Source: Acidimicrobiales bacterium
GTDB lineage: Bacteria; Actinomycetota; Acidimicrobiia; Acidimicrobiales; Ilumatobacteraceae
Direction of reading: 5' to 3'
Assembly (NCBI GenBank): GCA_038244535.1
Contig: JBBRTJ010000001.1
Span: forward strand, 10,861 to 74,860
DNA length: 64,000 nt
Numbering within the stretch: position 1 is the stretch's first letter; the number at the start of each line of letters is the position of its first letter. The position numbers and the translations under genes were made by a program. The notes beneath the pieces are model-generated. The model was not told the origin of the DNA. It was given only the letters and a program-made list of their open reading frames with translations, and searched no databases. Shown piece after piece: positions 1-35,977 of the stretch.

Positions 1-823
1 TCCGCCGTTCCTGCGCTACCACGTCGCCGACCGCGCCGGGGTGCTCACCCACTCGGCCGACATCGACCTGCCCCGCGGCGTGATGATGCACGACTTCCTG
101 ACCACCCGGCACCACTCGCTGTTCTTCGACCTCCCCGCCGTCATCTCGATGACGGGCGACGGCATGTGGCAGCCCCAGTTCGGCGCGCGCATCGGCGTGG
201 TGCCCCGCCACGGCGGCAACGCCGACGTGCGCTGGTTCGAGATCGACCCTTGCTACGTCTTCCACTTCATGAACGCCTGGGAGGAGGGCGACACGATCGT
301 GGCCTTCGGCTGCCGCATGCCCTCGGTCGACCTCGACTTCCAGCGCGCCACCGAGGGCGCACCCAACGGGATCATCGAGGGCGTCGGCCTCACGAAGTGG
401 ACCATCGACCTGGCTGCGGGCACGGTGAGCGAGGAGCAGCTCGACGATCGCCGCACGGACTTCCCCCGCCTGCACGACGACCGCCTCGGGCTCCCCCACC
501 GCTTCGGTCACGCCTCGGCCACGCTGTCGGGTCCCGGCGGCTTCGGGTTCGACGGCATCGTTCGATACGACCTGAGCAACGGCGAGTCGCAGTCGATCTG
601 CTTCGGGTCGCGAGTCACGATTGGCGAGGCCGTCTTTGCCGCTGACCCCGACGGCACCAACGAGGACGACGGCTGGCTGCTCGTGCACGCCACCGACGTC
701 GACACGATGACCACCGACCTCGTGGTCCTCGACGCCCACGACATCACCGCTGGGCCCGTGGCCAAGGTCCATCTGCCCCAGCGGGTCCCCGCCGGCTTCC
801 ACGGCAACTGGATGCCCTCCTGA
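1..823 (+). CDS. carotenoid cleavage oxygenase (CCO/RPE65 family), 5' end outside the window
   Basis: The frame of ORF 41..823 stays open to the window edge (PPFLRYHVADRAGV...). Family-like motifs: FHFMNAWEE, TDFPR, and C-terminal PAGFHGNW. Confidence 0.85.
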   Translation, partial: PPFLRYHVADRAGVLTHSADIDLPRGVMMHDFLTTRHHSLFFDLPAVISMTGDGMWQPQFGARIGVVPRHGGNADVRWFEIDPCYVFHFMNAWEEGDTIVAFGCRMPSVDLDFQRATEGAPNGIIEGVGLTKWTIDLAAGTVSEEQLDDRRTDFPRLHDDRLGLPHRFGHASATLSGPGGFGFDGIVRYDLSNGESQSICFGSRVTIGEAVFAADPDGTNEDDGWLLVHATDVDTMTTDLVVLDAHDITAGPVAKVHLPQRVPAGFHGNWMPS

Positions 824-13178: not shown

Positions 13179-14372
13179 GTGGTGGACGTCCAGCACGGGC
13201 GGATCGCCTTTCCCGACGGGTTCGTCTGGGGCACCGCCACCGCCGCCCACCAGGTCGAGGGCGGCAACTGGAACAACGACTGGTGGCGCTGGGAGCACCG
13301 GCCCGAGACGAACTGCGTCGAGCCGAGCGGTGATGGCATCGACCACTACCACCGCTCTCGAGACGACCTCGCGCTCCTGGCCGAGCTCGGCTTCGGCTCC
13401 TATCGCTTCTCGATCGAGTGGAGCCGAATCGAGCCCGAGAACGGCGAGATCTCGACGGCCGCGCTCGATCACTACCGCCGCATGTGTGCGGCCTGCCACG
13501 AGGTCGCCATCACCCCGGTCGTCACCTTCCACCACTTCACGACGCCGCGGTGGGTGGCCGACCTCGGCGGTTGGGAGGACCCGGCCACCGCCGATCGCTT
13601 CGCCCGCTTCTGCGCCCGGGCAACCGAGCACCTGGGCGATCTCATCGGGCGGGGCTGCACGCTCAACGAGCCCAACGTCGTGGCCACCATGGGCAACCTG
13701 GCCGGGGTGTTCCCGCCGGGCCGCCAGGACCCCTCGGCCCGTCGGCGCGTCAACGAGGTGTTCGTCGCCGCCCATCGCAAGGCCCTCGACGCCATCAAGA
13801 GCGGCCCTGGTGACTTCCCAGTGGGACTGTGCCTGGCCATGAGCGACTACCAGGCCGTCGATGGCGGCGAGGCCAAGCGCGACCAGATCCGCCACGCCAT
13901 GAACGACGTCTACCTCGACGCCGCCACCGGTGACGACTTCGTCGGCGTGCAGACCTACAGCCGCGACCGAGTCGGCCCCGACGGCGTCGTGCCGCCACCC
14001 GAGGGCGCCGAGCTCACGCTCATGGGCTACGAGTTCTGGCCCGAGGCGCTCGAGGCCACGATCCGCTACGCGTGGAAGCGCACCGACGGCACGCCGATCC
14101 TGGTCACCGAGAATGGCATCGGCACCGCCGACGACACCCGCCGCATCGCGTACTACCGGCGCTCGCTGGCCGGCGTGCGCCGCTGCCTCGATGACGGCAT
14201 CGACGTGCAGGGGTTCACGGCGTGGTCGGCGTTCGACAACTTCGAGTGGGCCCTCGGTTACCGGCCGACCTTCGGCCTGATCGCCGTCGACCGCACGACC
14301 TTTGTCCGCACGCCCAAGCCCAGCGCCTACTGGCTCGGCGAGATCGCCCGCACCAACGCCTTGGCGGGGTGA
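13179..14372 (+). CDS. GH1 beta-glucosidase
   Basis: 397 aa. WGTATAAHQVEG, acid/base TLNEPN, nucleophile VTENGIG. GTG start 2 nt after the thiolase stop. Confidence 0.93.
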   Translation: MVDVQHGRIAFPDGFVWGTATAAHQVEGGNWNNDWWRWEHRPETNCVEPSGDGIDHYHRSRDDLALLAELGFGSYRFSIEWSRIEPENGEISTAALDHYRRMCAACHEVAITPVVTFHHFTTPRWVADLGGWEDPATADRFARFCARATEHLGDLIGRGCTLNEPNVVATMGNLAGVFPPGRQDPSARRRVNEVFVAAHRKALDAIKSGPGDFPVGLCLAMSDYQAVDGGEAKRDQIRHAMNDVYLDAATGDDFVGVQTYSRDRVGPDGVVPPPEGAELTLMGYEFWPEALEATIRYAWKRTDGTPILVTENGIGTADDTRRIAYYRRSLAGVRRCLDDGIDVQGFTAWSAFDNFEWALGYRPTFGLIAVDRTTFVRTPKPSAYWLGEIARTNALAG

Positions 14373-14443
14373 CGCGAAGCCACGCCCACGCTCGCTTCCG
14401 GTGGTGCGGGCCTCGACGAAGCCCCGCCCATCGGCGGCGCTTT

Positions 14444-15226
14444 TCAGGAGGCGAGCGACACGGCGAAGATCTGCCAGGCCAACAGGGACTTCGCCCCGAG
14501 ACTGAGCGCCAGATAGGTCTTCTCACCGAAGGCATAATCGGCCCATCGGCCGACTCCCCGGTACTGAAGCCACTGGTTGAGGCCAAAGCTGAAGAAGAAC
14601 ATGAACTGAACGATGAAGATGGCGTAGACCGCGCCCGGGATCGTCGTCGCTCCGACGAGGTTGACGGCGATTGCCACCCAGGGAGCGATCCCCACGAGCG
14701 TCCCGAACCAGAAGGGGAGCATCGTGGTGGAGGTACGCCCGGGAGGGTTCATTCGTTCCTGGAGCCAGCCGAACAGGATCATCGCGATGTTGGCACCGGC
14801 GATTGCGATCACCGCGTTGATCGAGGTGATGCCGAAGTAGAAGCTGATCAGGATGACCATCACCGTGGCGCTGACGGAGTACTCGACCCATCGGAAGCGG
14901 TTGATGCCGCGCTGCAGGTCCCGCTCGTACACGCCCCGAGCGAAGGTCGCCGTCAGCAGATGATCCAGGCCGGCCAGGCCGAGGAAGACGACGATGGCCC
15001 ATCCGATCCGCACGTCGAACAGGGTCGAGGGGGCTGGCACTGCCGTCCCCGGGGGGCCTTCGGGGAACGACGATGTCACCACGATGGCAAAGTCGCTGGT
15101 CAGCACCAGGATCAGCACAGCCTGACCAAGATGCAAGACGGCCAAACCGACGTTCCAGCGGTGGAGGTTGCCGAGGCGTTCGCTGGTGACCCCCGTCGCG
15201 CTCGCCAGTGGAGTCAATCGGGCCAC
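14444..15226 (-). CDS. heliorhodopsin
   Basis: 7-TM protein with heliorhodopsin hallmarks: NRFRWVEYSVS, MILFGWLQE, LPFWFG, SLGAKSLLAWQIF (Lys codon at 14489..14491). ORF 14444..15349 trimmed to GTG 15226, which has GAAGGAG 4 nt upstream. Confidence 0.9.
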   Translation of the reverse strand: MARLTPLASATGVTSERLGNLHRWNVGLAVLHLGQAVLILVLTSDFAIVVTSSFPEGPPGTAVPAPSTLFDVRIGWAIVVFLGLAGLDHLLTATFARGVYERDLQRGINRFRWVEYSVSATVMVILISFYFGITSINAVIAIAGANIAMILFGWLQERMNPPGRTSTTMLPFWFGTLVGIAPWVAIAVNLVGATTIPGAVYAIFIVQFMFFFSFGLNQWLQYRGVGRWADYAFGEKTYLALSLGAKSLLAWQIFAVSLAS

Positions 15227-15373
15227 GGTGCTCCTTCGAAGTTCGTCGTACGCACCCAGGAAGCGGCGCCCTGGGAGGGTACGAGCAGGTCGGGCGACCT
15301 GTCCAGCGTGCTCAGCCGCCAGTGATGGCCGCCACCGGGTGCATCCCATGCCATGGACGGCCCGGAACGCAGA

Positions 15374-15410
15374 AGAGCCGATCGCCTCGTCGAGGAGGGC
15401 GATCGGCTCT
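15374..15410 (-). terminator. 13-bp perfect stem hairpin downstream of tRNA-Ala
   Basis: AGAGCCGATCGCC (15374..15386) pairs with GGCGATCGGCTCT (15398..15410) across an 11-nt loop. On the minus strand it follows the tRNA 3' end and precedes the heliorhodopsin promoter region. There is no clear U-tract. Confidence 0.5.
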
Positions 15411-15426
15411 GTCAGGCCTTACCGGG

Positions 15427-15499
15427 TGGAGGTGCGGGGAATCGAACCCCGGGCCTCAACAGTGCGATTGTTGCGCTCTGCCAACTGAGCTACACCCCC
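15427..15499 (-). tRNA. tRNA-Ala (anticodon CGC)
   Basis: Hand-folded cloverleaf. Acceptor GGGGGTG/CACCTCC with G3:U70, D-arm TAGCTCAGTTGGCAGAGC, anticodon loop ATCGCAC, T-arm CGGGGTTCGATTCCCCG, discriminator A. CCA is not encoded. Confidence 0.93.
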
Positions 15500-15510
15500 G
15501 CAGGGCTCGC

Positions 15511-16005
15511 TCAGGTTAGCCCGCCCTCGAGGGCGCGTTGCAGACGTTGCTGGAGCACGGCGTTGGTGATGTCACCTCGAGTGCGCTCGACCACGGCTCG
15601 CAGCGCGTCGAGGGTTCGGCGCAGCCCTCCGGTCAGCGCGTCGGGCGCATCGACCACCACGAGAGCGCCGAACGCCTCGTCCATCGAGGCCAGAAGCTGC
15701 TCGGCCCGTTCGAGATCGCCCTCGCGCAGCCGGTCGAGGGCGTGGCGGCGCAGCTCGCTGGCCGCCTCGGCCACGCCGTTGAGCCAGGCCGGGTCGGCCA
15801 CACCGAGCTCGTCGGGACCGGGCACGGTCGCGCCGGCCACGAGGGCCATCGTGGCGCGAGCCTCGACGTACTCCTTGGCCGCGTCGTGCAGGAAGCCGGC
15901 ATGGGCCACCTGGGGGAAGGGCCTGAGGGCCGACTGGGCCTCGCGAAGGTGGTGTTCGGCCTCCGCCGTCTTGGCCGCGACGACGTCGGGTTGGCCGAGG
16001 TGCAC
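15511..16005 (-). CDS. translin-family protein (canonical-start minimum; likely extends to about 16149)
   Basis: 164-aa ORF from GTG 16005. The same frame stays open upstream and encodes a family-like N-terminal helix (LDAAVGAISERLAVSSQAREVGLASCRAVIRASSSAIRAV), but with no ATG/GTG/TTG. See findings. Confidence 0.7.
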   Translation of the reverse strand: MHLGQPDVVAAKTAEAEHHLREAQSALRPFPQVAHAGFLHDAAKEYVEARATMALVAGATVPGPDELGVADPAWLNGVAEAASELRRHALDRLREGDLERAEQLLASMDEAFGALVVVDAPDALTGGLRRTLDALRAVVERTRGDITNAVLQQRLQRALEGGLT

Positions 16006-16160
16006 CGCCCGGATGGCGCTGCTCGAGGCCCGGATGACCGCCCGACACGATGCCAGCCCGACTTCGCGGGCTTGGCTGCTGACGGCCAGGCGCTCGGAGA
16101 TGGCGCCAACTGCGGCGTCGAGCGATCCCTCGGGCGCCGAGCCGTTCAGGACGCCCGACC

Positions 16161-16811
16161 TCAGGCGGCGTGCGACCAGGCGAAGCGGCTGGACCGCTGC
16201 ACCTCGACGCGGCGGAGCTGGACGAGCAGCGCGAGGTAAGCGACGAGGACCAGATCAAGGCCGACGTGGACGACCAGCAGCGGGCCCATGCCCGGCACGC
16301 CGAGCCCGAGGGCCAACGTCGCAAAGGCCAGCGCACCCAGGATCATGAGGACGTTCTGGCGCCGGCGCTTGGCAGCATCTCGCGACATGCGGGCGCGGTA
16401 GGCCGGAGCGGGCCGGCGGGCCGGAGCAGCCCGGTACGCGGGAGCGCCTCGGTACGCCGAAGTGGAGCGACGCGATGCCATGTCGTGACCACGGACCTCG
16501 TAGCGATCGTCGTCGTACTGGTCGTCAGCGTTGTCGTAGCTGTCGTAGCGATCGGCGGAGGCCACAGGCCCCCGAAGTTGGCGAGCTGGAGCGTAGGCCG
16601 GAGCGGTGCGAGATGAGCGCGTCGGCGGGGTCCGGTAGGCGGCGCCCATCGGGCGCGCACCGCGGCCGGCGGTGCGACTCAGCGTGGAGAGCTGTCGACC
16701 GAAGCTGCTGACGGAGTCGCCGGGGCGCCCGCTCGTTCGAGAGCGGAGGAACGGTGGCAGAAGCACCAGCGCCCACATCACAGCGAGAATCACGACAACC
16801 AACAGCGTCAC
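16161..16811 (-). CDS. hypothetical membrane protein (N-terminal TM, Arg/Ala/Tyr-rich linker, two C-terminal TMs)
   Basis: 216-aa ORF with a GTG start and hydrophobic segments at both ends. The linker carries APAYR-like peptide repeats. I recognised no family. Confidence 0.55.
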   Translation of the reverse strand: MTLLVVVILAVMWALVLLPPFLRSRTSGRPGDSVSSFGRQLSTLSRTAGRGARPMGAAYRTPPTRSSRTAPAYAPARQLRGPVASADRYDSYDNADDQYDDDRYEVRGHDMASRRSTSAYRGAPAYRAAPARRPAPAYRARMSRDAAKRRRQNVLMILGALAFATLALGLGVPGMGPLLVVHVGLDLVLVAYLALLVQLRRVEVQRSSRFAWSHAA

Positions 16812-16994
16812 GCTCCGTGCCTGCCTTTACCTGTCGGGTGACCGTAATCACAACGGTGTAAGCCGCGGTGGATGGTCACGTCGGATCGGGTGCGGACCTC
16901 AGGCGGAGCACCTGGGGACCCTCACTGTCTACTAGCCCCGTCACGAGACCGCAACGCGCCACTGAGCCCCGGGGCCCGCCACCGACACCAGCGC

Positions 16995-17480
16995 TCAGGC
17001 CGATTCAGCCCGCTTGTACACCCCGGAACGGCCGCCGGTCTTCTCCCACAGGGCCAGCTCGCCGATGACCATGGCCCGATCGGCCGACTTGCACATGTCA
17101 TAGATCGTGAGAGCGGCGAGCGAGCAGGCGTGGAGGGCCTCCATCTCGACCCCGGTCCGATCGACGGTGTCGACGTGGGCCTCGATGGCGATGTGGTCGT
17201 CGCCGATCTCGAAGTTGATGTACACCGAGCCGACCAGCAGCGGATGGCACAGCGGGATCATGTCGGCGGTCCGCTTAGCGGCCTGGATGCCGGCGACGCG
17301 TGCCACGGCCAGCACGTCACCCTTCTTGACCTCGCGGTTGGCGATGGCCGCCGTGGTCTCGGGCTTCATGAACACCTTGCAGCGGGCAACGGCCCGGCGG
17401 TGCGTCGGATCTTTCGGCGTGACGTCGACCATCCGGGCTCGGCCCAGCGGATCGAGGTGGGTGAAGTTCAGGTCCGACAC
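16995..17480 (-). CDS. moaC: cyclic pyranopterin monophosphate synthase
   Basis: 161 aa. Full-length MoaC pattern (RMVDVTPK, MIPLCHPL, EALHACSLAALTIYDMCK). Confidence 0.95.
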   Translation of the reverse strand: MSDLNFTHLDPLGRARMVDVTPKDPTHRRAVARCKVFMKPETTAAIANREVKKGDVLAVARVAGIQAAKRTADMIPLCHPLLVGSVYINFEIGDDHIAIEAHVDTVDRTGVEMEALHACSLAALTIYDMCKSADRAMVIGELALWEKTGGRSGVYKRAESA

Positions 17481-17546
17481 GAAGACCGAGCCTAGTGGTC
17501 GAGCCGCTCCCGACCCGCCGGACCCGCCCCCGGTACGGTTCGCCCA

Positions 17547-18290
17547 ATGTCAGCACTGCCCCCGCCGCTGCCGCCGACGCCGCCACCACCACCACCGAGG
17601 CCCGCACCCCCTGCCGCGTCCTTTCGGTCGCTGCGGGGGCTCACCGTGGCCCTCACCGCGGTCTACTCAGTCATGGTGGTCGTGCTGCTCCTCGGCGCCG
17701 GCGCGCTCCTGCATCGCCGGACCCTGCTCGTGAGCTACTTCGACGGCGAGAACGTCACCTACGACCAGCTCCACCGCGCCGACGGTCTCGTCGGGACCAC
17801 CGTGGGCCTCTGGCTGCTGCTCGGCATCACCGTGTTCGTCTTGTCGATCGTGTGGCTGTACCGGGCCTACCGGAACATCACCGCCCTGCACGTGAGCCCC
17901 ATGCGCACGAGCGCGGGCTGGGCCATCGGCGCCTGGTTCATCCCCGTCGCCAACCTCATGCTGGTCCCCCGGCTGATCCTTGACACCTGGCGGGCCGCTG
18001 ATCCGGCGGCCGCTCACAACCCCGAATGGCAGAAGCTGCCGCGGTTGGGGTCCGTGGTGGTGTGGTGGTCACTGCTGGCCGCGGGAGCCCTGGCCAACAG
18101 GATCGGCAACCTCCAGACGCTCAGGGAGCCTGAAGGCGCCAAGAGCCACGAGCTGTGGCTCATCGCGTCACACCTGCTGTACGTCGTGGCCGCCGTGCTC
18201 GCCATCACCTCGATCCGAGCCGTGGCGGCGCGCCAGCACCGGCGCGCCGAACAACAAGGAGCAGCCGATGGAGCCCATGACCATCCCTGA
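17547..18290 (+). CDS. DUF4328-domain membrane protein
   Basis: 247 aa. Pro-rich N-terminus, then a TM core with WFIPVANLMLVP, typical of DUF4328. Confidence 0.75.
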   Translation: MSALPPPLPPTPPPPPPRPAPPAASFRSLRGLTVALTAVYSVMVVVLLLGAGALLHRRTLLVSYFDGENVTYDQLHRADGLVGTTVGLWLLLGITVFVLSIVWLYRAYRNITALHVSPMRTSAGWAIGAWFIPVANLMLVPRLILDTWRAADPAAAHNPEWQKLPRLGSVVVWWSLLAAGALANRIGNLQTLREPEGAKSHELWLIASHLLYVVAAVLAITSIRAVAARQHRRAEQQGAADGAHDHP

Positions 18291-19338
18291 GAGCGATGCA
18301 GAGCTGACCCCGGCATGGTTCAGCGCCGTGCTGGGACAGCGGGTGGACACCGTGCAGATCGAGGCGCTCGGCGAGGGCGTCGGGGTCATGGCAACCGTGC
18401 GCCGGGTGCACCTGACCGGCGCCGGCGCCCTGCCGGCCTCGGTCATCGTCAAGCTGCCCGCACCACCTGGCCCGAACCGCGAGACGGCCTCGACGTACGG
18501 GTTCTACGCCCGCGAGGTCGAGTTCTACCGCCAGGCCGCACCGAGCATGGACCTGCGGGTGCCGGGCTGCTTCCATGCCGACTCGGCTGGCGACGGCTCG
18601 GGCGTCCCGTTCGTGATCGTGCTCGAAGACGTGCGCGACGCCACCTCGGTCGATCAGCTTGCCGGCTGCACGCTGGCCCAGGCCGAGCTCGTGAGCGACG
18701 AGGTCGCCAAGCTCCACGCCCGCTGGTGGGATGCCCCCGACCTCGACTTGCTCGACTGGCTGCCATCGGTCGACAACCCGGCCTACCGCGGGTTCCAGGC
18801 CGCCATCGAGCCGTTGCAGCCCGTGCTGCGGGCCAAGTACGGCGACGCTCTCGACGAGCGGGGCTGGTCGCTCATGAGCAGGCTCGAGGGCGGCGGCTAC
18901 CTCGAGTACCTCGCCTACTGGGAGCGGACCGGGCCGATGACGTTCGCCCACTACGACCTGCGGCTCGACAACGTGCTGTTCGAGGCCGACCGCGTGTGCC
19001 TGCTCGACTGGCAGCTCGCGGTGCGCCATCGGGGCACGTTCGACCTTGCCTACTTCCTCGGCCAGAACGTCACGCCCGAGTTCCGCCGCACCCACCAGGA
19101 GCGGCTGCTGCGCCGGTACCACGACGCCCTGACCGGGCTCGGCGTCACGGGCTACTCGTTCGAGCACTGCTACGACGACTACCGCGGCGCCATGGTCATG
19201 CACGTCGCCTCGGCACTGCAGCTCGCCACCCTCGAACCGGGCAACGAGCGAGGGCAGCGGCTCCTCGACGCGATGTGCACGTCGGGATGGACAGCGGCGT
19301 GCGAGCTCGACAGCGGACAGGTGATCTTCGGGAGCTGA
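18268..19338 (+). CDS. phosphotransferase-family protein (ecdysteroid-kinase/APH-like)
   Basis: ORF 17980..19338 trimmed to ATG 18268, with AAGGAG 6 nt upstream. Kinase-like CLLDWQLAVRHRGTFDLAYFL. Confidence 0.8.
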   Translation: MEPMTIPESDAELTPAWFSAVLGQRVDTVQIEALGEGVGVMATVRRVHLTGAGALPASVIVKLPAPPGPNRETASTYGFYAREVEFYRQAAPSMDLRVPGCFHADSAGDGSGVPFVIVLEDVRDATSVDQLAGCTLAQAELVSDEVAKLHARWWDAPDLDLLDWLPSVDNPAYRGFQAAIEPLQPVLRAKYGDALDERGWSLMSRLEGGGYLEYLAYWERTGPMTFAHYDLRLDNVLFEADRVCLLDWQLAVRHRGTFDLAYFLGQNVTPEFRRTHQERLLRRYHDALTGLGVTGYSFEHCYDDYRGAMVMHVASALQLATLEPGNERGQRLLDAMCTSGWTAACELDSGQVIFGS

Positions 19339-19350
19339 TGGGCTGCTCCT

Positions 19351-20394
19351 TCAGCCGCCGATCTGGCTCATGGACTTGGTGGGGCGGATGAAGTGGACCT
19401 GACCGATGCTGTGCCCGGCCCACTTCGTCCCCACCGCCCGCACGATCTCGGCGTGGACGTCGTCGTCGCTGCCACCGCTGCGGATGATGGCCCGCAGGTC
19501 GAACGAGCGGGTGGCGAACAGGCAGGTGCGCAGCTCGCCTTCGGCGGTCAGGCGGACGCGGTCGCAGTCGCCGCAGAACGGCTTGGTCACGCTCGGGATG
19601 ACGCCGACCATGCCCTTGCCGTCGACGTAGCGCCAACGATCGGCTGGCGCCGAACCACGGGCCGCCACGGGCTCGAGCGGGAACGCAGCGGAGAGCAACG
19701 CCACGATCTCGTCCTGGCCGACGACGGTTCGCTGCTCCCACTCGCCCTGGGCGTCGAGCGGCATGAACTCGATGAAGCGGAGCTCGACGTCGGTGTCGCG
19801 CGCCCACGCGGCCAACGCCACGATCTCGTGATCGTTGGTGCCCCGCTCGACGACGCAGTTGACCTTGACCGGGCTGAAGCCGGCCTCCTTGGCCGCTTCG
19901 ATGCCGTCGAGCACCGCGGCGAGTTCGTCACGCCGCGTGATGCGCAAAAACGTGTCGCGATCAAGGGTGTCGAGGCTGACGTTCACCCGGTCGAGCCCCG
20001 CGTCGCGCAGCTCGTGGGCCAGCAGGCGGAAGGTGGCGCCGTTGGTGGTGAGCGAGAGATCCGGCTTCTGGCCGGCGACGGGCGTGTCGGCCGAGGCAGG
20101 TACGCGAAGCCGGCTCAGCTTGTCGACGAGCACCGGGAGGTGGGCCCTGACCGTCGGCTCGCCGCCGGTCAGGCGAATGCCGTCGACGTTGCAGCGCTCG
20201 ACGAAGACCCGGGCCAACCGCTCGATCTCTTCGAAGGTGAGCAGCTCCTGGCGGGGCAGCCACTGCATGCCCTCCGCCGGCATGCAGTAGTGGCACCGGA
20301 AGTTGCAGCGGTCGGTCACCGAGATGCGCAGGTCGCGCACCGTGCGCCCGAACGGATCGACGAGGTCGCGAGGATCCGAGTCGGCCGAGTGCAT
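19351..20394 (-). CDS. moaA: GTP 3',8-cyclase (radical SAM)
   Basis: 347 aa. CNFRCHYC radical-SAM cluster motif and C-terminal CGDCDRVRLTAEG second-cluster motif. Confidence 0.95.
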   Translation of the reverse strand: MHSADSDPRDLVDPFGRTVRDLRISVTDRCNFRCHYCMPAEGMQWLPRQELLTFEEIERLARVFVERCNVDGIRLTGGEPTVRAHLPVLVDKLSRLRVPASADTPVAGQKPDLSLTTNGATFRLLAHELRDAGLDRVNVSLDTLDRDTFLRITRRDELAAVLDGIEAAKEAGFSPVKVNCVVERGTNDHEIVALAAWARDTDVELRFIEFMPLDAQGEWEQRTVVGQDEIVALLSAAFPLEPVAARGSAPADRWRYVDGKGMVGVIPSVTKPFCGDCDRVRLTAEGELRTCLFATRSFDLRAIIRSGGSDDDVHAEIVRAVGTKWAGHSIGQVHFIRPTKSMSQIGG

Positions 20395-20401
20395 GCCGAG
20401 A

Positions 20402-20428
20402 GGCTACGGGCGCCGCCCGCCCGTAGCC
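20402..20428 (-). promoter_or_regulatory. 11-bp perfect stem hairpin in the moaA leader
   Basis: GGCTACGGGCG (20402..20412) pairs with CGCCCGTAGCC (20418..20428) across a 5-nt loop. It ends 7 nt upstream of the moaA ATG and lies between a GAGGGGGAG stretch and the start codon. Confidence 0.4.
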
Positions 20429-20453
20429 ACTCCCCCTCGGTCCCACCACACGA

Positions 20454-20573
20454 GCAATCCGACGTTTTGACCGTCAAGTTCCCCGGAATGCGGGCAATCC
20501 GACGTTTTGACCGTCAAGTTCCCCGGAATGCGGGCAATCCGACGTTTTAACCGTCAAACTCCCCGCGACGGCC
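20454..20573. repeat. 40-bp tandem repeat x3 (two identical copies plus one diverged)
   Basis: GCAATCCGACGTTTTGACCGTCAAGTTCCCCGGAATGCGG occurs at 20454..20493 and identically at 20494..20533. The third copy starts at 20534 and has a few substitutions. Each copy carries the palindrome TTGACCGTCAA. Confidence 0.9.
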
Positions 20574-20577
20574 AGGC

Positions 20578-22356
20578 TCAGCCCTTGCAGAACGCCACCT
20601 GGTCATGGACGGCGTTGGGAGTGCTGTCACCCGTGGTCAGCAGCGCGTCCACCGACAGCGTGACGATGTACGCGCACTTCGGCAGGGTCGTGACGACGAA
20701 GCCGTTGGTGGCCGTGCCGAACTGCTCTCCGACCACCGGGGCCGGCAGGGTGAAGCCATAGGGCCCGCCCGGGCCGGTCAAGGTGATCGACACCGCCCCG
20801 AGGTTGGGGTGGGCGGCGGTGAAGAGCACGTGCAGCTGGTCGGCAATCCCGATGCAGCCGTGCGTCACGAGCTCGAGCACGTCGAGTGACGCCACCGCGA
20901 GCTGCCCCGACACCTGCGAGGGCGCCCACGACCCACCGTTGTTGACGTGGTCGTAGAGCGTGTTGTCGATGGCGAGCGTCTCGCACTCACCGGCGGCGAT
21001 CTCGGTCAGGGCGTTCCCGGCCTCTCGCACCCGAAGGCGGATGCCGAACAGGCGGTCGAGGGCGAACCCGGCGCCGCTGGTGCTGTTGCCGGCCGAGACA
21101 CCACCGACGTCGACCGTGCCCCATGCCGCCATGGTCGTGGTGGCGAGGCGGATCATGTCGAGGTTCGGCGTGAACAGCCCGGTCAACAGGTTGTTGTCCT
21201 GCGGCATGGCGATCCAACCCTGGGCGTCAGGGACCACGACGATCACGTTGGGTGCCGGAGATCCGTTGACCACGACCGACTTCACGTCGATGCTCATCCC
21301 GACGAGTCGCTCCCAGGTGCCGATCTTGGTGGCCGCGATCTGCGACGGCAGCACCGCGGTCCATGGGCCGGCGGGCAAGGCCCGCGTCTCGAAGCGGTAC
21401 TCGAGGGGCTGGCCGTTGCGGGTCGTGCCGATGGGACCGTTCAGGCGGAGGTCGGAGTAGAAGGCCCGCTGATCGGCCAGCGTCAGGCCGCTTCCAGCCG
21501 CACCGCTGTCGATGTCGACCTGGATGTCGAGCCCACCGATGAAGCGGAAGACGGGTACCACCTCGGTGATGGGCGGCTGGCTCTTGACGCACAGGTCGAG
21601 GCACAGGCATGGTCCGACGTTCTGGCGGCCGGGGCTGCGGCCCATGGACGGCGCCTCGGTGAGCAGCGCCGTACCGCCGAACGAGGTGACCGACATGTAC
21701 ACGTCGGGGCCGGGCCACAGCTCGACGTTGAGCCACGAGAAGATCGTCTTTTCGAAGTCGGCGGGCGCGTACCAGATGCGGTAGTGACCAGTCGTGTCGG
21801 TCATGGCACTGCCAAGGGCATCGTCTTGCAGCCAGTCTCGGTCGAAGGCCTTGACGGTGGCGCCGATGACGGGCGTGTCGGTGCCGCAGACGGTCACGGT
21901 GCCGCAGATCGACCACAGGCCGAGGTGGCCGAGGACGTAGCACCACGACCGCGAGGGGATCTCGTAGGAGAACGCGGCGATGGCGCCCTGCTCCTGCTGG
22001 CGCCACTGCGGTTGGAACGTGGTGACGGCGACCTGGCGCGGGCGGGGCGGCACGTGACCAGCGACCGTGCCGCAGTAGAGGTCGATGTCGAGCGCGCCGC
22101 CGCCGTAGCCCTCGGGCAACGCGACGGTGAAGGTGCCGTCGGCGCCGACGGTGCTCGTGGCCAGGAGCGCTCCGGCCTTGGCCGTCACGGCGTCGTCGTC
22201 GAGGAGGTGAAGGGTCTGGTTCGGGTCGGCGGCGGCCCGGTGGACGAGGGTCTCGTCGAGCTTGGCGTCGTAGAGGCGCACGATCGTGCCTTCGAGGAAC
22301 AGGTCGCAGTCATCGCAGGTGTAAGCGACGAGCCGACCCTTCAGTGTGTAGGCCAT
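20578..22356 (-). CDS. hypothetical Cys-rich 592-aa protein with transthyretin/CarboxypepD_reg-like N-terminal modules
   Basis: ATG 22356 preceded by AAGGAG at 5-nt spacing. Clean long ORF, no signal peptide. Two short beta-sandwich-like modules (GTIVRLYD...ADGTFTV; VIGATVKAFD...DTTGHYRIWY). I recognised no catalytic motif. Confidence 0.8.
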   Translation of the reverse strand: MAYTLKGRLVAYTCDDCDLFLEGTIVRLYDAKLDETLVHRAAADPNQTLHLLDDDAVTAKAGALLATSTVGADGTFTVALPEGYGGGALDIDLYCGTVAGHVPPRPRQVAVTTFQPQWRQQEQGAIAAFSYEIPSRSWCYVLGHLGLWSICGTVTVCGTDTPVIGATVKAFDRDWLQDDALGSAMTDTTGHYRIWYAPADFEKTIFSWLNVELWPGPDVYMSVTSFGGTALLTEAPSMGRSPGRQNVGPCLCLDLCVKSQPPITEVVPVFRFIGGLDIQVDIDSGAAGSGLTLADQRAFYSDLRLNGPIGTTRNGQPLEYRFETRALPAGPWTAVLPSQIAATKIGTWERLVGMSIDVKSVVVNGSPAPNVIVVVPDAQGWIAMPQDNNLLTGLFTPNLDMIRLATTTMAAWGTVDVGGVSAGNSTSGAGFALDRLFGIRLRVREAGNALTEIAAGECETLAIDNTLYDHVNNGGSWAPSQVSGQLAVASLDVLELVTHGCIGIADQLHVLFTAAHPNLGAVSITLTGPGGPYGFTLPAPVVGEQFGTATNGFVVTTLPKCAYIVTLSVDALLTTGDSTPNAVHDQVAFCKG

Positions 22357-22429
22357 GGGGGGACTCCTTGTTCGACGGGCGGCGGTGCCCGCGTCTCACA
22401 AGAGGTCGCGCGTCAGGCGCTGATACGCC

Positions 22430-23683
22430 TCACAGGTCGAGGATCATCACCGAGACGTCGCCACCGGCCGCCACGCCGTCGCCGTCGGGTAGTAGCGCCA
22501 AGCCGTTGGCAGCCGAGGTGGCCGCGAGCTGGTGGCTGCCCTGAGCCCCCGTCGAGCGCACGTGCCAGCGGCCGTCGGGGGCAAACGCGCCGAACACCCG
22601 AACCAGGTGGAGCTTGCCGTCCGGCCGCCGCCGCAACGGCTCGTCGGCCACGGCCATGGTGGTGGGGCGATCGAGCTGTTGGTGACCCATCAGCTTGCGC
22701 AGCGCCGGGCGGGCGAGCACCTCGAACGACACGAGTGAGCTGACCGGGTTGCCGGGCAGGCCGAAGACCGGCACCTCACCCTCTGGGCCTTCGATCACGC
22801 CGAACGCAAAGGGCTTGGCCGGCTTGATGGCGATCTGCATCCAGCGCATCGTTCCGAGGCGATCGAGGACCACCTTGATGAGGTCGAAGTCGCCCATGCT
22901 CACGCCACCGCTCGTGACGATGGCGTCGCAGCTCGACACTGCGCTCTCGATGGCGTCGGTGATCAGGTCTTCGTCGTCGCGCACCAGGCCCAGGTCGACC
23001 GGCAGGCACCCGGCCTGGCGCACGAGGCCGAGCAACATCGTGCGGTTCGACTCGCGGATCTGGCCGGGCTCGAGCGGCCCGTCGCCCTCGATCAGCTCGT
23101 CGCCGGTGCTCAGCACCCCGACGCGCGCCTGGGGCACGACCGGGAGCCTCACGACCCCGAGCGAGGCCAACACGCCCAGGTGACTCGGGCGCAGCACGGT
23201 GCCCGCTTCGAGCACGACATCACCGATCCCGATGTCGCTGCCCGCCCGCCTGACCGCATCGCCTGCACTGACGCCATGGCCGAGGCGCACGCGGCTCCCG
23301 CCATCGAGCGGTTCGGACTCCTCGACCATCACGACGGCATCGGCCCCGGGAGGCATCGGCGCGCCCGTCATGATCCGCACGCACGTGCGGGCCGTGACCA
23401 TGAGGCTTGGTGGCGCGCCGGCGGCCAGGGTGCCGACCACGGTGAGCTCGACGGGTGACTCGTCGGCGCCGGTGGTGTCGGCCGCCTGCACGGCGAAGCC
23501 GTCGACGGCGGAGTTGGCGAACGGCGGCACCTCCTCGTGGGCCACGACCGCCTCGGCGATCACGCACCCGAGCGCTTCGTTGAGGGGCACGGCGGTGGGC
23601 GCCAGCGCAGTGACGGCATCGAGCACGTACAGGCGGGCCTCGTCGAGAGGGATCACGACGGCGACGGTAGTGGCACGATGCAT
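22430..23683 (-). CDS. moeA: molybdopterin molybdotransferase
   Basis: ORF 22430..24001 trimmed to ATG 23683. MoeA pattern: PPFANSAVDGFAV, RIMTGAPMP, TSGGVSMGDFD, GLPGNPVSS. Confidence 0.92.
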   Translation of the reverse strand: MHRATTVAVVIPLDEARLYVLDAVTALAPTAVPLNEALGCVIAEAVVAHEEVPPFANSAVDGFAVQAADTTGADESPVELTVVGTLAAGAPPSLMVTARTCVRIMTGAPMPPGADAVVMVEESEPLDGGSRVRLGHGVSAGDAVRRAGSDIGIGDVVLEAGTVLRPSHLGVLASLGVVRLPVVPQARVGVLSTGDELIEGDGPLEPGQIRESNRTMLLGLVRQAGCLPVDLGLVRDDEDLITDAIESAVSSCDAIVTSGGVSMGDFDLIKVVLDRLGTMRWMQIAIKPAKPFAFGVIEGPEGEVPVFGLPGNPVSSLVSFEVLARPALRKLMGHQQLDRPTTMAVADEPLRRRPDGKLHLVRVFGAFAPDGRWHVRSTGAQGSHQLAATSAANGLALLPDGDGVAAGGDVSVMILDL

Positions 23684-23685
23684 CG

Positions 23686-24222
23686 ATGGCGCAGGGAGAG
23701 GTGACGGGTCGCTGGGCTTCGTCGGACGGCCAGAGCACCGAGGAGCTACGGGTCCGCTTCGAGCACGGCGGGTGGACGGCCGAGGGCGTCGCCAGCGGCG
23801 CCGACGTCCACTACGCGCTCCGCTTCGACGCCGCCTGGTCACTGCGCCAGCTCCTGGTCTTCCGCGACCTCGACGAGCCGGACCTGTGGCTCGGCACCGA
23901 CGGCACCGGTGCGTGGGGCGAGGTGCGCGGGGCGCGCCGGCCCGACCTCGAGGGTTGCGCCGGCGTCCACCTGACCATCTCGCCGTTCCCGCTGGCCTCA
24001 CTCGCCATCACCTGGGCCGACCATCCCGCCCGTCGAGGCGAGGTGCTGGTAGCCGAGGTCGACGTCGAGTCGCTCGGCGTCGTGGCCACCACGGCCCGAT
24101 GGGAGCGCCGCGGGCGGGCTTGGTCGGTGACCACCGGCGACGGCGCCGTCGAGCACCGCTTCGAGCTGGACGACGACGGCTTGCCCGGCGACGTCGAGGG
24201 GCGCTTCCGCCGCCTCAGGTGA
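23686..24222 (+). CDS. putative glycolipid-binding domain protein (DUF1089-like)
   Basis: 178 aa. The pattern YALRFDAAW...DGTGAW...LEGCAGVHLTISPFPLA...DDDGLPGDVEGRF resembles that family. Its start lies 2 nt from the divergent moeA start. Confidence 0.65.
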   Translation: MAQGEVTGRWASSDGQSTEELRVRFEHGGWTAEGVASGADVHYALRFDAAWSLRQLLVFRDLDEPDLWLGTDGTGAWGEVRGARRPDLEGCAGVHLTISPFPLASLAITWADHPARRGEVLVAEVDVESLGVVATTARWERRGRAWSVTTGDGAVEHRFELDDDGLPGDVEGRFRRLR

Positions 24223-34352: not shown

Positions 34353-35627
34353 TCACGGCTGAGGTGGCGTCCGGTCGCAGACGACTTGGTTCCGACCGTT
34401 GCTCTTGGCGCGGTACAGCGCTGCGTCGGCGCGTTGAAGGGTGTCGTGCAGGGCTCGGTGGTGCTCGGCTGCGCCGAGGCTGATGGTCACGCCGGCGACC
34501 ATGTTCGGCGAGCTCTCGACGACCAACTCGGCGATGGCGACGCGCAGTGCTTCGGCGCGGCCCGCCGCAGCGGCCAGGTCTGCTCCGGGCAGCAGAACGG
34601 CGAACTCCTCACCACCGAACCGGGCCAGAAGATCGATGGTTCGAAGGTGACTGGTGAGCGCGGCGCCGACTGCGCACAGCACGATGTCGCCACCGTCGTG
34701 ACCGTGAGTGTCGTTGACTGCCTTGAAGTGATCGATGTCGATCATCAGCACTGCCGCTGGCACATGATTGACCGCACATGCCTTCAACAGCCGATCGGCG
34801 CGAGAGTCGAAACCCCGACGGTTCGTCAGCTTCGTCAGCGGATCGGTGTCCGCCTCGCGCCGCAGGTCTTCCTCGCGACGCTGCATCTCGGTGGTGTCGC
34901 GGGTCACGATGATGAACCCTTCAGGTTCACCTTTCTCATCGACCACTGTCGAAATCATTGTGTCGGTGTAGAACGTTTCGCCTGGCGAACTGAGCGCCCA
35001 TCCCTCAGTGCGCCGCCACCCGGCGAATATCGCGGCGTCAAGAACGTCAGAGAGCCGTTCGACCGACACCACTTGGTCCAGAGGGCGGCCTACTGCTTGC
35101 GACGCTTTGAGGCCGAACAAGCGCTCACCAGATGCGTTCCACGAGTCGATGAGTCCAGCACGGTCGATGGTGTAGATCGCGTATTCGCGGACCATCTCGA
35201 CGATGAGGCGAATGCGGTCGCGTTCGTGGCTCAGCTCATGCTCGCGGTGCACCAGTTCCGTCACATCGCTGATCACGGCGACGTAGTAGCCCGGACGAGG
35301 TCGATGAACAGACACCTCTACCGTGGCGACGGTGCCGTTCACCTCGAGCCTCGAACGGTGGTTTGCCACTACCACGGTCCCGCCTTCGTCGGCCCTCACC
35401 AGCGCGCCGAGATCGGGCACCAACGGGGCGAGCAGAGTGAAGGCGTTGCCCATGACCGCCGACCCTACGAACGGGCTCAGCAACTGCACCGACATGGGGG
35501 TGGCTCGAGTCACGGATCCTGTCGAGTCGAACGCGACGACGCCGACAGGGAGCAGGTAGAGCAACTCGTAGAGCTCTTCGAGCTCATTGTTCAACGAGCC
35601 GGACCCAGACGGTTCGTTCAGGTCCAT
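34353..35627 (-). CDS. diguanylate cyclase with two PAS domains (PAS-PAS-GGDEF)
   Basis: 424 aa. DPLTKLTNRRGF, DIDHFKAVNDTHGHDGGD, active site RFGGEEFAV. Two PAS-like segments lie upstream. The ATG overlaps the PYP gene by 10 nt. Confidence 0.92.
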   Translation of the reverse strand: MDLNEPSGSGSLNNELEELYELLYLLPVGVVAFDSTGSVTRATPMSVQLLSPFVGSAVMGNAFTLLAPLVPDLGALVRADEGGTVVVANHRSRLEVNGTVATVEVSVHRPRPGYYVAVISDVTELVHREHELSHERDRIRLIVEMVREYAIYTIDRAGLIDSWNASGERLFGLKASQAVGRPLDQVVSVERLSDVLDAAIFAGWRRTEGWALSSPGETFYTDTMISTVVDEKGEPEGFIIVTRDTTEMQRREEDLRREADTDPLTKLTNRRGFDSRADRLLKACAVNHVPAAVLMIDIDHFKAVNDTHGHDGGDIVLCAVGAALTSHLRTIDLLARFGGEEFAVLLPGADLAAAAGRAEALRVAIAELVVESSPNMVAGVTISLGAAEHHRALHDTLQRADAALYRAKSNGRNQVVCDRTPPQP

Positions 35628-35977
35628 TGCACGAGGAGGAATCGTCGTGCGGCGTCGCGGCGCGTCAGCAATCGCAACCGCACTGAGGTCGGCTTCATCC
35701 GTAAGGTGAAGACGTAGTCAATGGTTGCATCGAGCTCACTCTCGGTCTCGAACCGATGCGCGACCATGAAGTTGTTCGTGCATGGGGCGACCTCACTGAA
35801 GAAAAGCCGACCGACGACTCGCTCCGGTGAAAGGCCAGAACGAGTCGACTCGGTTCGGTTGTACATGACAACACGATGATCGGCATCCATGGCAATGACA
35901 CCGAACGTGGTGTCCTGCAACTGAGAATCGGAGGATGAGGTCAACTGGTCGTACAGATCGATCTCATCGAACTCCAC
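35618..35977 (-). CDS. pyp: photoactive yellow protein (PYP) homologue
   Basis: 119 aa, GTG start. It aligns from memory to Halorhodospira PYP along its length: FGVIAMDADHRVVMYNRTE (Tyr39/Glu43 = Tyr42/Glu46), GRLFFSEVAPCTNN (Cys66 = Cys69), and YVFTLRMKPTSVRL. Confidence 0.85.
   Translation of the reverse strand: MEFDEIDLYDQLTSSSDSQLQDTTFGVIAMDADHRVVMYNRTESTRSGLSPERVVGRLFFSEVAPCTNNFMVAHRFETESELDATIDYVFTLRMKPTSVRLRLLTRRDAARRFLLVQWT

Follow-up and report, generated by a model that had tools for sequence, protein, structure and literature searches.

A heliorhodopsin gene next to tRNA-Ala

We analyzed a heliorhodopsin (HeR) gene in a 64,000-nucleotide (nt) stretch (the window, to which all coordinates refer unless a contig or locus is named) of an Acidimicrobiales genome (GenBank assembly GCA_038244535.1, contig JBBRTJ010000001.1). 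At 3.5 Mb in 171 contigs and 97.6% completeness, the genome is that of a monoderm host, its relatives being labelled Ilumatobacteraceae or Acidimicrobiales, i.e. Actinomycetota. The HeR coding sequence occupies positions 14444..15226 of the minus strand, starts with GTG, ends with TGA and encodes 260 amino acids (aa). Upstream on the same strand lies a gene for tRNA-Ala with the anticodon CGC (15425..15499; ARAGORN; Rfam tRNA, 65.6 bits), and a gene of the GH1 beta-glucosidase family on the plus strand (13179..14372; PF00232, E=3.1e-81) converges on the HeR gene, with 71 nt between the two gene ends.

The initial annotation, made from the sequence alone, had named the product a heliorhodopsin, and profile searches bear this out. 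The protein matches Pfam PF18761 (Heliorhodopsin) with E=3.9e-91 and 305 bits (cut-off 26.7) over profile positions 1-241 of 242, and the NCBIfam equivalog NF038020 'HeR' with 252.9 bits against a cut-off of 100. Chains of the prototype 48C12 in the PDB are matched with a best E of 1.6e-61, at 45% identity over 240 columns. A total of 5350 public sequences are HeR-like at E<=1e-40, and the protein encoded here is an intact, ordinary member of this family.

The minus-strand open reading frame (ORF) at 14444..15349 encodes 301 aa when left untrimmed and 260 aa when read from the in-frame GTG at 15226, the start chosen in the initial annotation. A Shine-Dalgarno (SD) sequence, GAAGGAG (15231..15237, minus strand), can be read directly 4 nt upstream of this GTG, and the gene called in a public protein collection corresponds to exactly the 260-aa sequence. 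In close homologues the start codon falls at the corresponding point of the alignment, and several of them share CGAAGGAGCACCGTG; the homologous loci L008, L148 and L150 carry an identical CGAAGGAGCACCGTG at the SD and L151 a near-identical CGAAGGAGCAGCGTG. The alternative start, ATG 15349, lies only ~20-25 nt past a hairpin that follows the tRNA gene (see below) and therefore leaves no space for a promoter. GTG 15226 thus appears well supported as the right start.

Key residues, clade signature and fold

To place functional residues, 48C12 numbering was carried over via a HMMER alignment and a 105-row MAFFT alignment comprising this protein and 104 relatives. The retinal Schiff-base lysine is Lys246 (48C12 K241; codon AAG, 14489..14491), situated within SLGAKSLLAWQIF; a lysine occupies this position in 103 of the 104 relatives, the remaining row showing a gap. 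The counterion is Glu115 (48C12 E107; codon GAG, 14882..14884) in the FRWVEYS motif of helix 3, and it is invariant across the relatives. The serine of the SxxxK motif (S242, 48C12 S237) and both histidines of the Schiff-base cavity (H32 and H89, 48C12 H23 and H80) are likewise kept, as are N109 (N101), R112 (R104), E157 (E149), Q218 (Q213) and E235 (E230). All motifs quoted in the initial annotation (FRWVEYS, MILFGWLQE, LPFWFG, LHLGQ, LDHLL and SLGAKSLLAWQIF) are present, with the lysine codon where it had been placed.

The protein thus shares with 48C12 (PDB 6SU3, 6SU4, 6UH3; Pushkarev 2018; Kovalev 2020, PMC7049168), whose structure is known, as is that of TaHeR (PMC7049168), the counterion, the lysine, the SxxxK serine, both histidines, the Arg104/Asn101/Glu149/Glu230/Gln213 set and a long AB beta-hairpin loop. 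It differs from 48C12 at five sites: A85 (S76) and A120 (S112), near the counterion and the polar cluster of helices C and D, and T176 (C166), F212 (N207) and G215 (A210) at the lateral fenestration. Each of these states is found in 68-95 of the 104 relatives and is the majority state in the ~90 closest ones; the five substitutions mark a clade and are not a peculiarity of this gene. Ser76 helps to stabilize the counterion in 48C12 (PMC7049168), while the corresponding residue is alanine here (Ala85) and in 90 of the 104 relatives. The same exchange has been recorded in HeRs of the Geodermatophilaceae (bioRxiv 10.1101/2024.05.16.594530). It is a known clade-level variant and no ground for excluding the protein from the heliorhodopsins.

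The fenestration bears on a recent proposal for HeRs in general (bioRxiv 10.1101/2025.11.27.691015), according to which the lateral opening recruits an external xanthophyll as a second chromophore, so that the protein would be a two-antenna light harvester rather than mainly a signalling switch. Several residues of the proposed site are present (F162, G169 and F206 of 48C12 correspond to F172, G179 and F211), small residues occupy positions 166 (T176) and 210 (G215; bioRxiv 10.1101/2025.11.27.691015), and the genome makes carotenoids, including by means of a CrtZ-like hydroxylase. However, N207, the asparagine of the site described as conserved in that 2025 preprint, is phenylalanine here and in 86 of the 104 relatives, i.e. 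in much of this large Actinomycetota clade, which puts a bulky residue into the modelled path of the carotenoid chain. Moreover, the hypothesis is based on docking, and an energy-conserving output of HeRs is not known. We therefore regard such a role as improbable for this protein.

An AlphaFold2 model computed from a 31-row alignment (predicted local distance difference test score 88) has seven helices as well as the long AB beta-hairpin, with strands at residues 47-52 and 67-73. It superimposes on 6su3 with a template modeling (TM) score of 0.88 and a root-mean-square deviation of 2.0 Å. The top 10 PDB matches to the model are all HeRs (TM 0.86-0.88, deviations of ~2 Å), whereas type-1 rhodopsins reach at most ~0.65. 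Based on the helices of the model, the N-terminus and the BC, DE and FG loops together hold 13 lysines and arginines and the opposite side only one. The inverted topology that the initial annotation gave as a trait of the family, with the N-terminus inside, is thus predicted here.

The shared fold and Schiff-base region could be taken to indicate a light-driven or light-gated ion transporter, as in the case of some viral heliorhodopsins, for which proton transport is cited as reported in PMC12873467 and PMC11109279. However, the present protein falls into the 48C12-type bacterial group, a Geodermatophilaceae HeR sharing S76A showed no pumping (bioRxiv 10.1101/2024.05.16.594530), and the genome already possesses a type-1 rhodopsin with a DTE motif (see below). 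Ion transport is accordingly a very unlikely function.

The HeR gene as a single-gene transcription unit

On the 3' side of tRNA-Ala, the minus strand can form a perfect 13-bp hairpin followed by UUCUGCGUU (15374..15410; inverted repeat I3; folding energy -43 kcal/mol, z=-4.25), which parts the tRNA transcript from the HeR gene. Alignment of upstream regions suggests a promoter-like element between this hairpin and the start codon, TGGACA-N18-TACCCT (15276..15305, minus strand), the TAnnnT portion of which recurs at the matching alignment position in almost every one of the closest HeR homologues. A scan for E. coli-type promoter and terminator consensus sequences returned nothing, the TGGACA-N18-TACCCT element staying under the threshold; the hairpins were later confirmed by folding. 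Downstream, folding revealed a hairpin just 3' of the HeR stop codon (14419..14442), which on the plus strand is followed by UUUU. It would thus end the convergent GH1 gene in the manner of a terminator, possibly one that acts bidirectionally.

In the ORF list of the window, the HeR gene has no close same-strand neighbor. Flanked by the tRNA hairpin on the upstream side and, downstream, by the converging GH1 gene and that gene's terminator-like hairpin, the HeR gene looks monocistronic, a single-gene transcription unit that would be served by its own sigma-70-like promoter and SD sequence. A search of the HeR leader against Rfam matched only the tRNA and no known RNA element. A SigK-type motif, CATCC-N17-CGAA, was absent from the ~250 nt upstream of the HeR start even when the motif was relaxed, and its strict form occurred in 4 of 108 related loci.

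Just upstream of the SD sequence, at 15239-15247, we also observed a short inverted repeat, CGAAC(G)TTCG. L148 and L008 have it as a perfect palindrome of 10 bp, from which the window's version lacks one base. This repeat could be a regulator site or merely reflect shared ancestry.

Conserved synteny ends at tRNA-Ala

The tRNA-Ala(CGC) gene is the last member of a block of genes, MoeA-MoaA-MoaC-SepX/GlpR-like-translin-like-tRNA-Ala(CGC) (15425-24001 in the window), which is found across the order. Its synteny is retained in 6 to 7 relatives (loci L134-L140) and spans families of the Acidimicrobiales. The window's copy of the block is interrupted in two places: at 17547-19338 by a DUF4328 gene together with an APH/EcKL-type kinase gene, and at 20578-22356 by a gene for a cysteine-rich protein of 592 aa. 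In none of the seven relatives examined is tRNA-Ala followed by a HeR, GH1 or thiolase gene. As synteny in the relatives ends at tRNA-Ala, the HeR gene occupies the first position of a variable region beyond the conserved block.

The block member next to the tRNA (15511..16005, minus strand) had been described as translin-like in the initial annotation. This designation is the one soft point in that description: the product matches the PRK14562-type NCBIfam model NF011160 (E=4.6e-54), but Pfam Translin itself gave no significant match (E=0.26). The reading frame of the gene (15511-16251) stays open far beyond GTG 16005 on the upstream side, and matches to NCBIfam profiles begin at about profile position 55, so that the true start of this gene is uncertain.

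We compared the surroundings of the HeR gene with those of 96 related loci, of which 80 were GTDB loci (one genome per species) and 16 came from the same family or order. When 12 neighbors from the window were searched against these loci by tblastn, none was consistently found beside HeR and only stray P450 and GH1 paralogues were seen; a GH1 gene occurred in one of the 80 and one of the 16 loci, several kb off in both cases. Unbiased clustering of 1038 flanking ORFs yielded, as the best family, short-chain dehydrogenases/reductases (SDRs), present in only 13 of the 96 loci, and an ABC exporter as the second. Both are among the ten classes of HeR neighbors listed in a published survey (PMC11109279); there, as in another survey (bioRxiv 10.1101/2024.05.16.594530), HeR genes are mostly solitary. 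None of these ten classes is adjacent to the present gene, no same-strand partner of the kind known from HeR operons (glutamine synthetase, photolyase, ABC transporter, SDR and others; PMC11109279, PMC8612252) abuts it, and there are no crt or blh genes within ~10 kb. The local context described in the initial annotation (convergent GH1 gene, tRNA-Ala with its hairpin, absence of crt and blh genes) is therefore real, but it had been considered informative, and this expectation failed: since no neighbor is conserved beside HeR, the genomic context is uninformative on the role of this protein.

The adjacent tRNA was likewise considered as a hallmark of integration. Of the 96 loci, 6 have a tRNA gene no more than 1.5 kb from HeR, roughly as many as the density of tRNA genes in the flanks would predict, and we rejected the adjacency as a chance occurrence. 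The 3' half of tRNA-Ala has no second copy in the 64 kb at up to 3 mismatches, no meaningful repeats flank the HeR unit, and integrase or transposase genes were not seen between 9.9 and 24 kb of the window. With neither a direct repeat nor an integrase or transposase, a tRNA-targeted integrative island was rejected as well.

Probable horizontal origin

HeR genes were found in 26 of 61 genomes searched (this genome, which carries a single copy, and 60 relatives) and in 20 of the 37 belonging to the family, each of the 20 representing a different genus. HeRs of the same family are 42-75% identical to the present one. The best matches are 82-87% identical and bear the labels Gaiellales, Solirubrobacterales, Thermoleophilia or Actinomycetes, several of them being encoded on contigs of 18-74 kb; the Thermoleophilia-labelled HeRs on such contigs show 82-85% identity. 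A HeR from a Geodermatophilaceae bin is 73% identical. In a maximum-likelihood tree, the protein falls into an 11-row clade (Shimodaira-Hasegawa-like approximate likelihood ratio test, 100), five rows of which are from Thermoleophilia and four from Actinomycetes, and lies outside a 40-row clade that holds most Acidimicrobiia/Ilumatobacteraceae HeRs. Forcing it into the latter clade costs 63 log-likelihood units (approximately unbiased [AU] test, p=0.02). Family HeRs as a whole are scattered over at least five separate clades.

At the nucleotide level, blastn identity of 84-88% to HeR loci of other Actinomycetota classes is confined to 14443..15345 (minus strand), a stretch bounded by the first base past the HeR stop codon and by a point 119 nt ahead of the start codon, while both flanks are unrelated. 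Genes flanking HeR on the Thermoleophilia contigs are 25-55% identical to genes of this genome or have no match in it. The nearest homologues (loci L151, L008 and L150) are 86-89% identical yet reside in different settings. In L151 (6416-7336) and L008 (1312-2229), the HeR gene stands back-to-back with a gene for Blh, a retinal-forming dioxygenase; the HeRs of these divergent pairs show 86-87% protein identity to the present one and partly homologous upstream regions, including promoter and SD sequence, whereas this window and genome lack Blh. In L150 (584-919), the HeR gene is found beside a fragment of an IS481-type transposase gene.

Because of the misplacement in the tree, the confinement of nucleotide identity to 14443..15345, the unrelated flanks and the end of synteny at tRNA-Ala, we suggest that the HeR gene is a xenologue, probably acquired horizontally as a promoter-plus-gene unit of ~0.9 kb. 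We infer the direction of this transfer, into the present lineage. Several points weigh against this interpretation. The group for the AU test was picked after the tree had been seen, and p was only 0.02; bins from metagenomes may carry a wrong taxon label; the relatives compared belong to other genera; neither a tRNA 3'-end repeat nor a mobile-element gene flanks the unit; and the dip in GC content of the HeR gene (63.5% vs ~70%) could be due merely to membrane-protein composition.

Some of these points could instead be accommodated by vertical inheritance, with the odd position in the tree and the loss of neighbors being artefacts that stem from contigs placed in the wrong bin, from mislabelling and from rapid rearrangement of the locality. 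The presence of HeR in so many genera of the family is consistent with this explanation, as is the unreliability of bin labels, one close relative being labelled Acidobacteriota. It is opposed by the higher identity of the Thermoleophilia-labelled HeRs on 18-74 kb contigs compared to same-family HeRs, by flanks on those contigs that are only distantly related to this genome, by nucleotide homology that stops exactly at the edges of the gene and by the dispersal of family HeRs over separate clades. We thus deem vertical inheritance unlikely and favor horizontal acquisition.

A further-reaching proposal would be that HeR passes from one Actinomycetota class to another as a self-sufficient promoter-plus-gene unit of ~0.9 kb, without mobile-element or partner genes, the clade concerned being recognizable by S76A, S112A and N207F when compared with 48C12. 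We put this forward tentatively, as a possibility open to considerable doubt. If true, HeRs of the clade must act alone or on something that every recipient already has, and the search for a general HeR function would narrow to universally conserved targets.

Between the present HeR gene and its two nearest homologues, we obtained dS values of 0.31-0.44 and dN/dS ratios of 0.18-0.19. The gene is under purifying selection.

Other light-related genes and the supply of retinal

Elsewhere in the genome, one type-1 rhodopsin is encoded (contig C104:6652-7575), with a DTE motif (RYVDWLLTVPLLLAE) and the retinal lysine in DVIAKPVFG. It is surrounded by trehalose and glycogen genes and a P-type ATPase gene, without adjacent blh or crt genes. 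Carotenoid genes are found on C67 (crtB, crtI, a second desaturase and a CrtZ-like hydroxylase) and C74 (lycopene cyclase), so that the genome, judged by gene content, has a beta-carotene pathway. Blh was not detected in this genome, either with a hidden Markov model or by tblastn with the Blh of a near relative; the model did detect Blh in five relatives.

Three RPE65-family oxygenases are encoded in the genome. One, CCO1, is the carotenoid oxygenase near the HeR gene to which the initial annotation had pointed. It is indeed present at the left edge of the window, which holds the 3' part of the gene (1..823, plus strand; PF03055, E=4.9e-68); the whole gene extends beyond it (C1:10340-11677 matched; PF03055, E=2.9e-129). 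However, in a same-family genome (L156, G002:C24), an oxygenase encoded 5 kb from a type-1 rhodopsin gene resembles another paralogue, CCO3 (C6:15364-16680). Like the only oxygenases encoded by two small relatives that possess rhodopsins, this one is 49-59% identical to CCO3 but just 36-39% to CCO1. CCO1 is therefore not favored as the retinal-forming enzyme, and CCO3 is, by sequence comparison, a candidate for a Blh-independent one.

Across the 61 genomes, type-1 rhodopsins were found in 14, all of which also carry HeR. Blh is present in five genomes, all with both rhodopsins, and lies within ~2.2 kb of the type-1 gene in three of the five. Thus, in this order every type-1 rhodopsin found comes with a HeR, yet 21 of the 26 HeR carriers lack Blh. 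In three genomes that are nearly complete and encode both rhodopsins, Blh and RPE65-family oxygenases are both absent. The supply of retinal through RPE65-type oxygenases or by uptake merits attention in this order.

The initial annotation had further suggested that the organism is light-responsive through at least two unrelated sensors, HeR and a photoactive yellow protein (PYP) encoded 20 kb away. As a statement on gene content this stands, with the type-1 rhodopsin as an addition; the PYP assignment is less firm. The 119-aa PYP homologue (35618..35977, minus strand) matches TIGR02373 with E=2.6e-23 and 82 bits, below the equivalog cut-off of 143. A PAS fold is recognized (E=2.9e-6), and by eye the tyrosine and glutamate of the chromophore pocket and the cysteine (VAPCT) are present. 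Its gene overlaps the next one downstream, which encodes a PAS-GGDEF diguanylate cyclase (34353..35627, minus strand; GGDEF, E=1.6e-41; PAS, E~1e-9).

The lack of a linked partner and of a dedicated retinal enzyme could also mean that the HeR gene is a silent or decaying passenger without a current role, and frameshifted HeR genes have been reported from some actinomycetes (bioRxiv 10.1101/2024.05.16.594530). Given an intact frame, the retention of all key residues, the low dN/dS ratio and the conserved promoter and SD sequence, we consider this highly improbable.

A putative photosensor with an unlinked partner

Based on these results, we consider it likely that the gene encodes a functional 48C12-type heliorhodopsin of a high-GC Actinomycetota clade, which serves as a non-pumping retinal photosensor and acts on an unlinked partner. 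The seven-helix membrane protein, with its N-terminus in the cytoplasm, would bind all-trans retinal at Lys246, with Glu115 as the counterion. By analogy with characterized relatives, illumination would elicit a slow photocycle rather than ion pumping, and the attendant conformational change might be sensed by another protein via the cytoplasmic loops, which are rich in arginine. Expression would proceed from the single-gene unit, insulated from upstream transcription by the tRNA-Ala hairpin and bounded downstream by the convergent GH1 gene and the terminator hairpin. This promoter-plus-gene unit would have arrived by horizontal transfer and been set just past the conserved block; as it is a lone transferred unit, any partner would be encoded elsewhere in the genome. 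Since the genome has no Blh, retinal may be produced from its own beta-carotene pathway by one of the three RPE65-type oxygenases or be taken from the environment.

Three observations weigh against this model: no linked gene qualifies as a partner of the sensor, the promoter candidate scores below the threshold of the consensus scan, and Ser76, the counterion helper of 48C12 (PMC7049168), is replaced by alanine.

With regard to the last point, the HeRs of Geodermatophilaceae, such as BagHR of Blastococcus aggregatus, are instructive. They share S76A with the present protein and, like it, are less than 49% identical to 48C12, have varied neighborhoods and are often encoded opposite to their neighbors (bioRxiv 10.1101/2024.05.16.594530). 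A Geodermatophilaceae HeR with S76A has its absorption maximum at 559 nm, and no pumping by it was seen (bioRxiv 10.1101/2024.05.16.594530); unlike the host of BagHR, a member of the Actinomycetes, the present host belongs to the Acidimicrobiia, and we infer these two properties for its HeR by transfer only. Geodermatophilaceae HeRs have been assigned to subfamily 1/group A (bioRxiv 10.1101/2024.05.16.594530), to which the present protein, by analogy, probably belongs too.

In characterized cases, HeR partners are glutamine synthetase (AbHeR; PMC9529153), photolyase (TfHeR; PMC9769723) and an ABC transporter/exporter (OcHeR-OmrDE; PMC11109279). These HeRs belong to the same family, and their partners are encoded in the same operon, unlike the present HeR, which shares its transcription unit with no gene. 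We propose, by analogy, that the mode of action of these systems, light-dependent binding and modulation of another protein, applies here as well.

Standard annotation would already name this protein a HeR, and taken alone it is of little consequence. The points added here (probable horizontal origin, clade signature, lack of Blh and co-occurrence with type-1 rhodopsins) are of modest weight and agree for the most part with what has been published. The value of the locus is that of a clean example: most actinobacterial HeR genes stand alone, and their neighbors differ even between close homologues, which argues against genomic context as a guide to what HeRs of this clade do.

A separate arrangement was seen in four Actinomycetota loci (L044, L057, L063 and L074), in which a gene for a protein of ~530 aa starts a few bases past the HeR stop codon on the same strand. 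By eye, its product resembles NAD(P)-binding NmrA/SDR-like proteins with a C-terminal extension; the gene is absent from the present window. Together, HeR and this gene may constitute a real variant of HeR operons.

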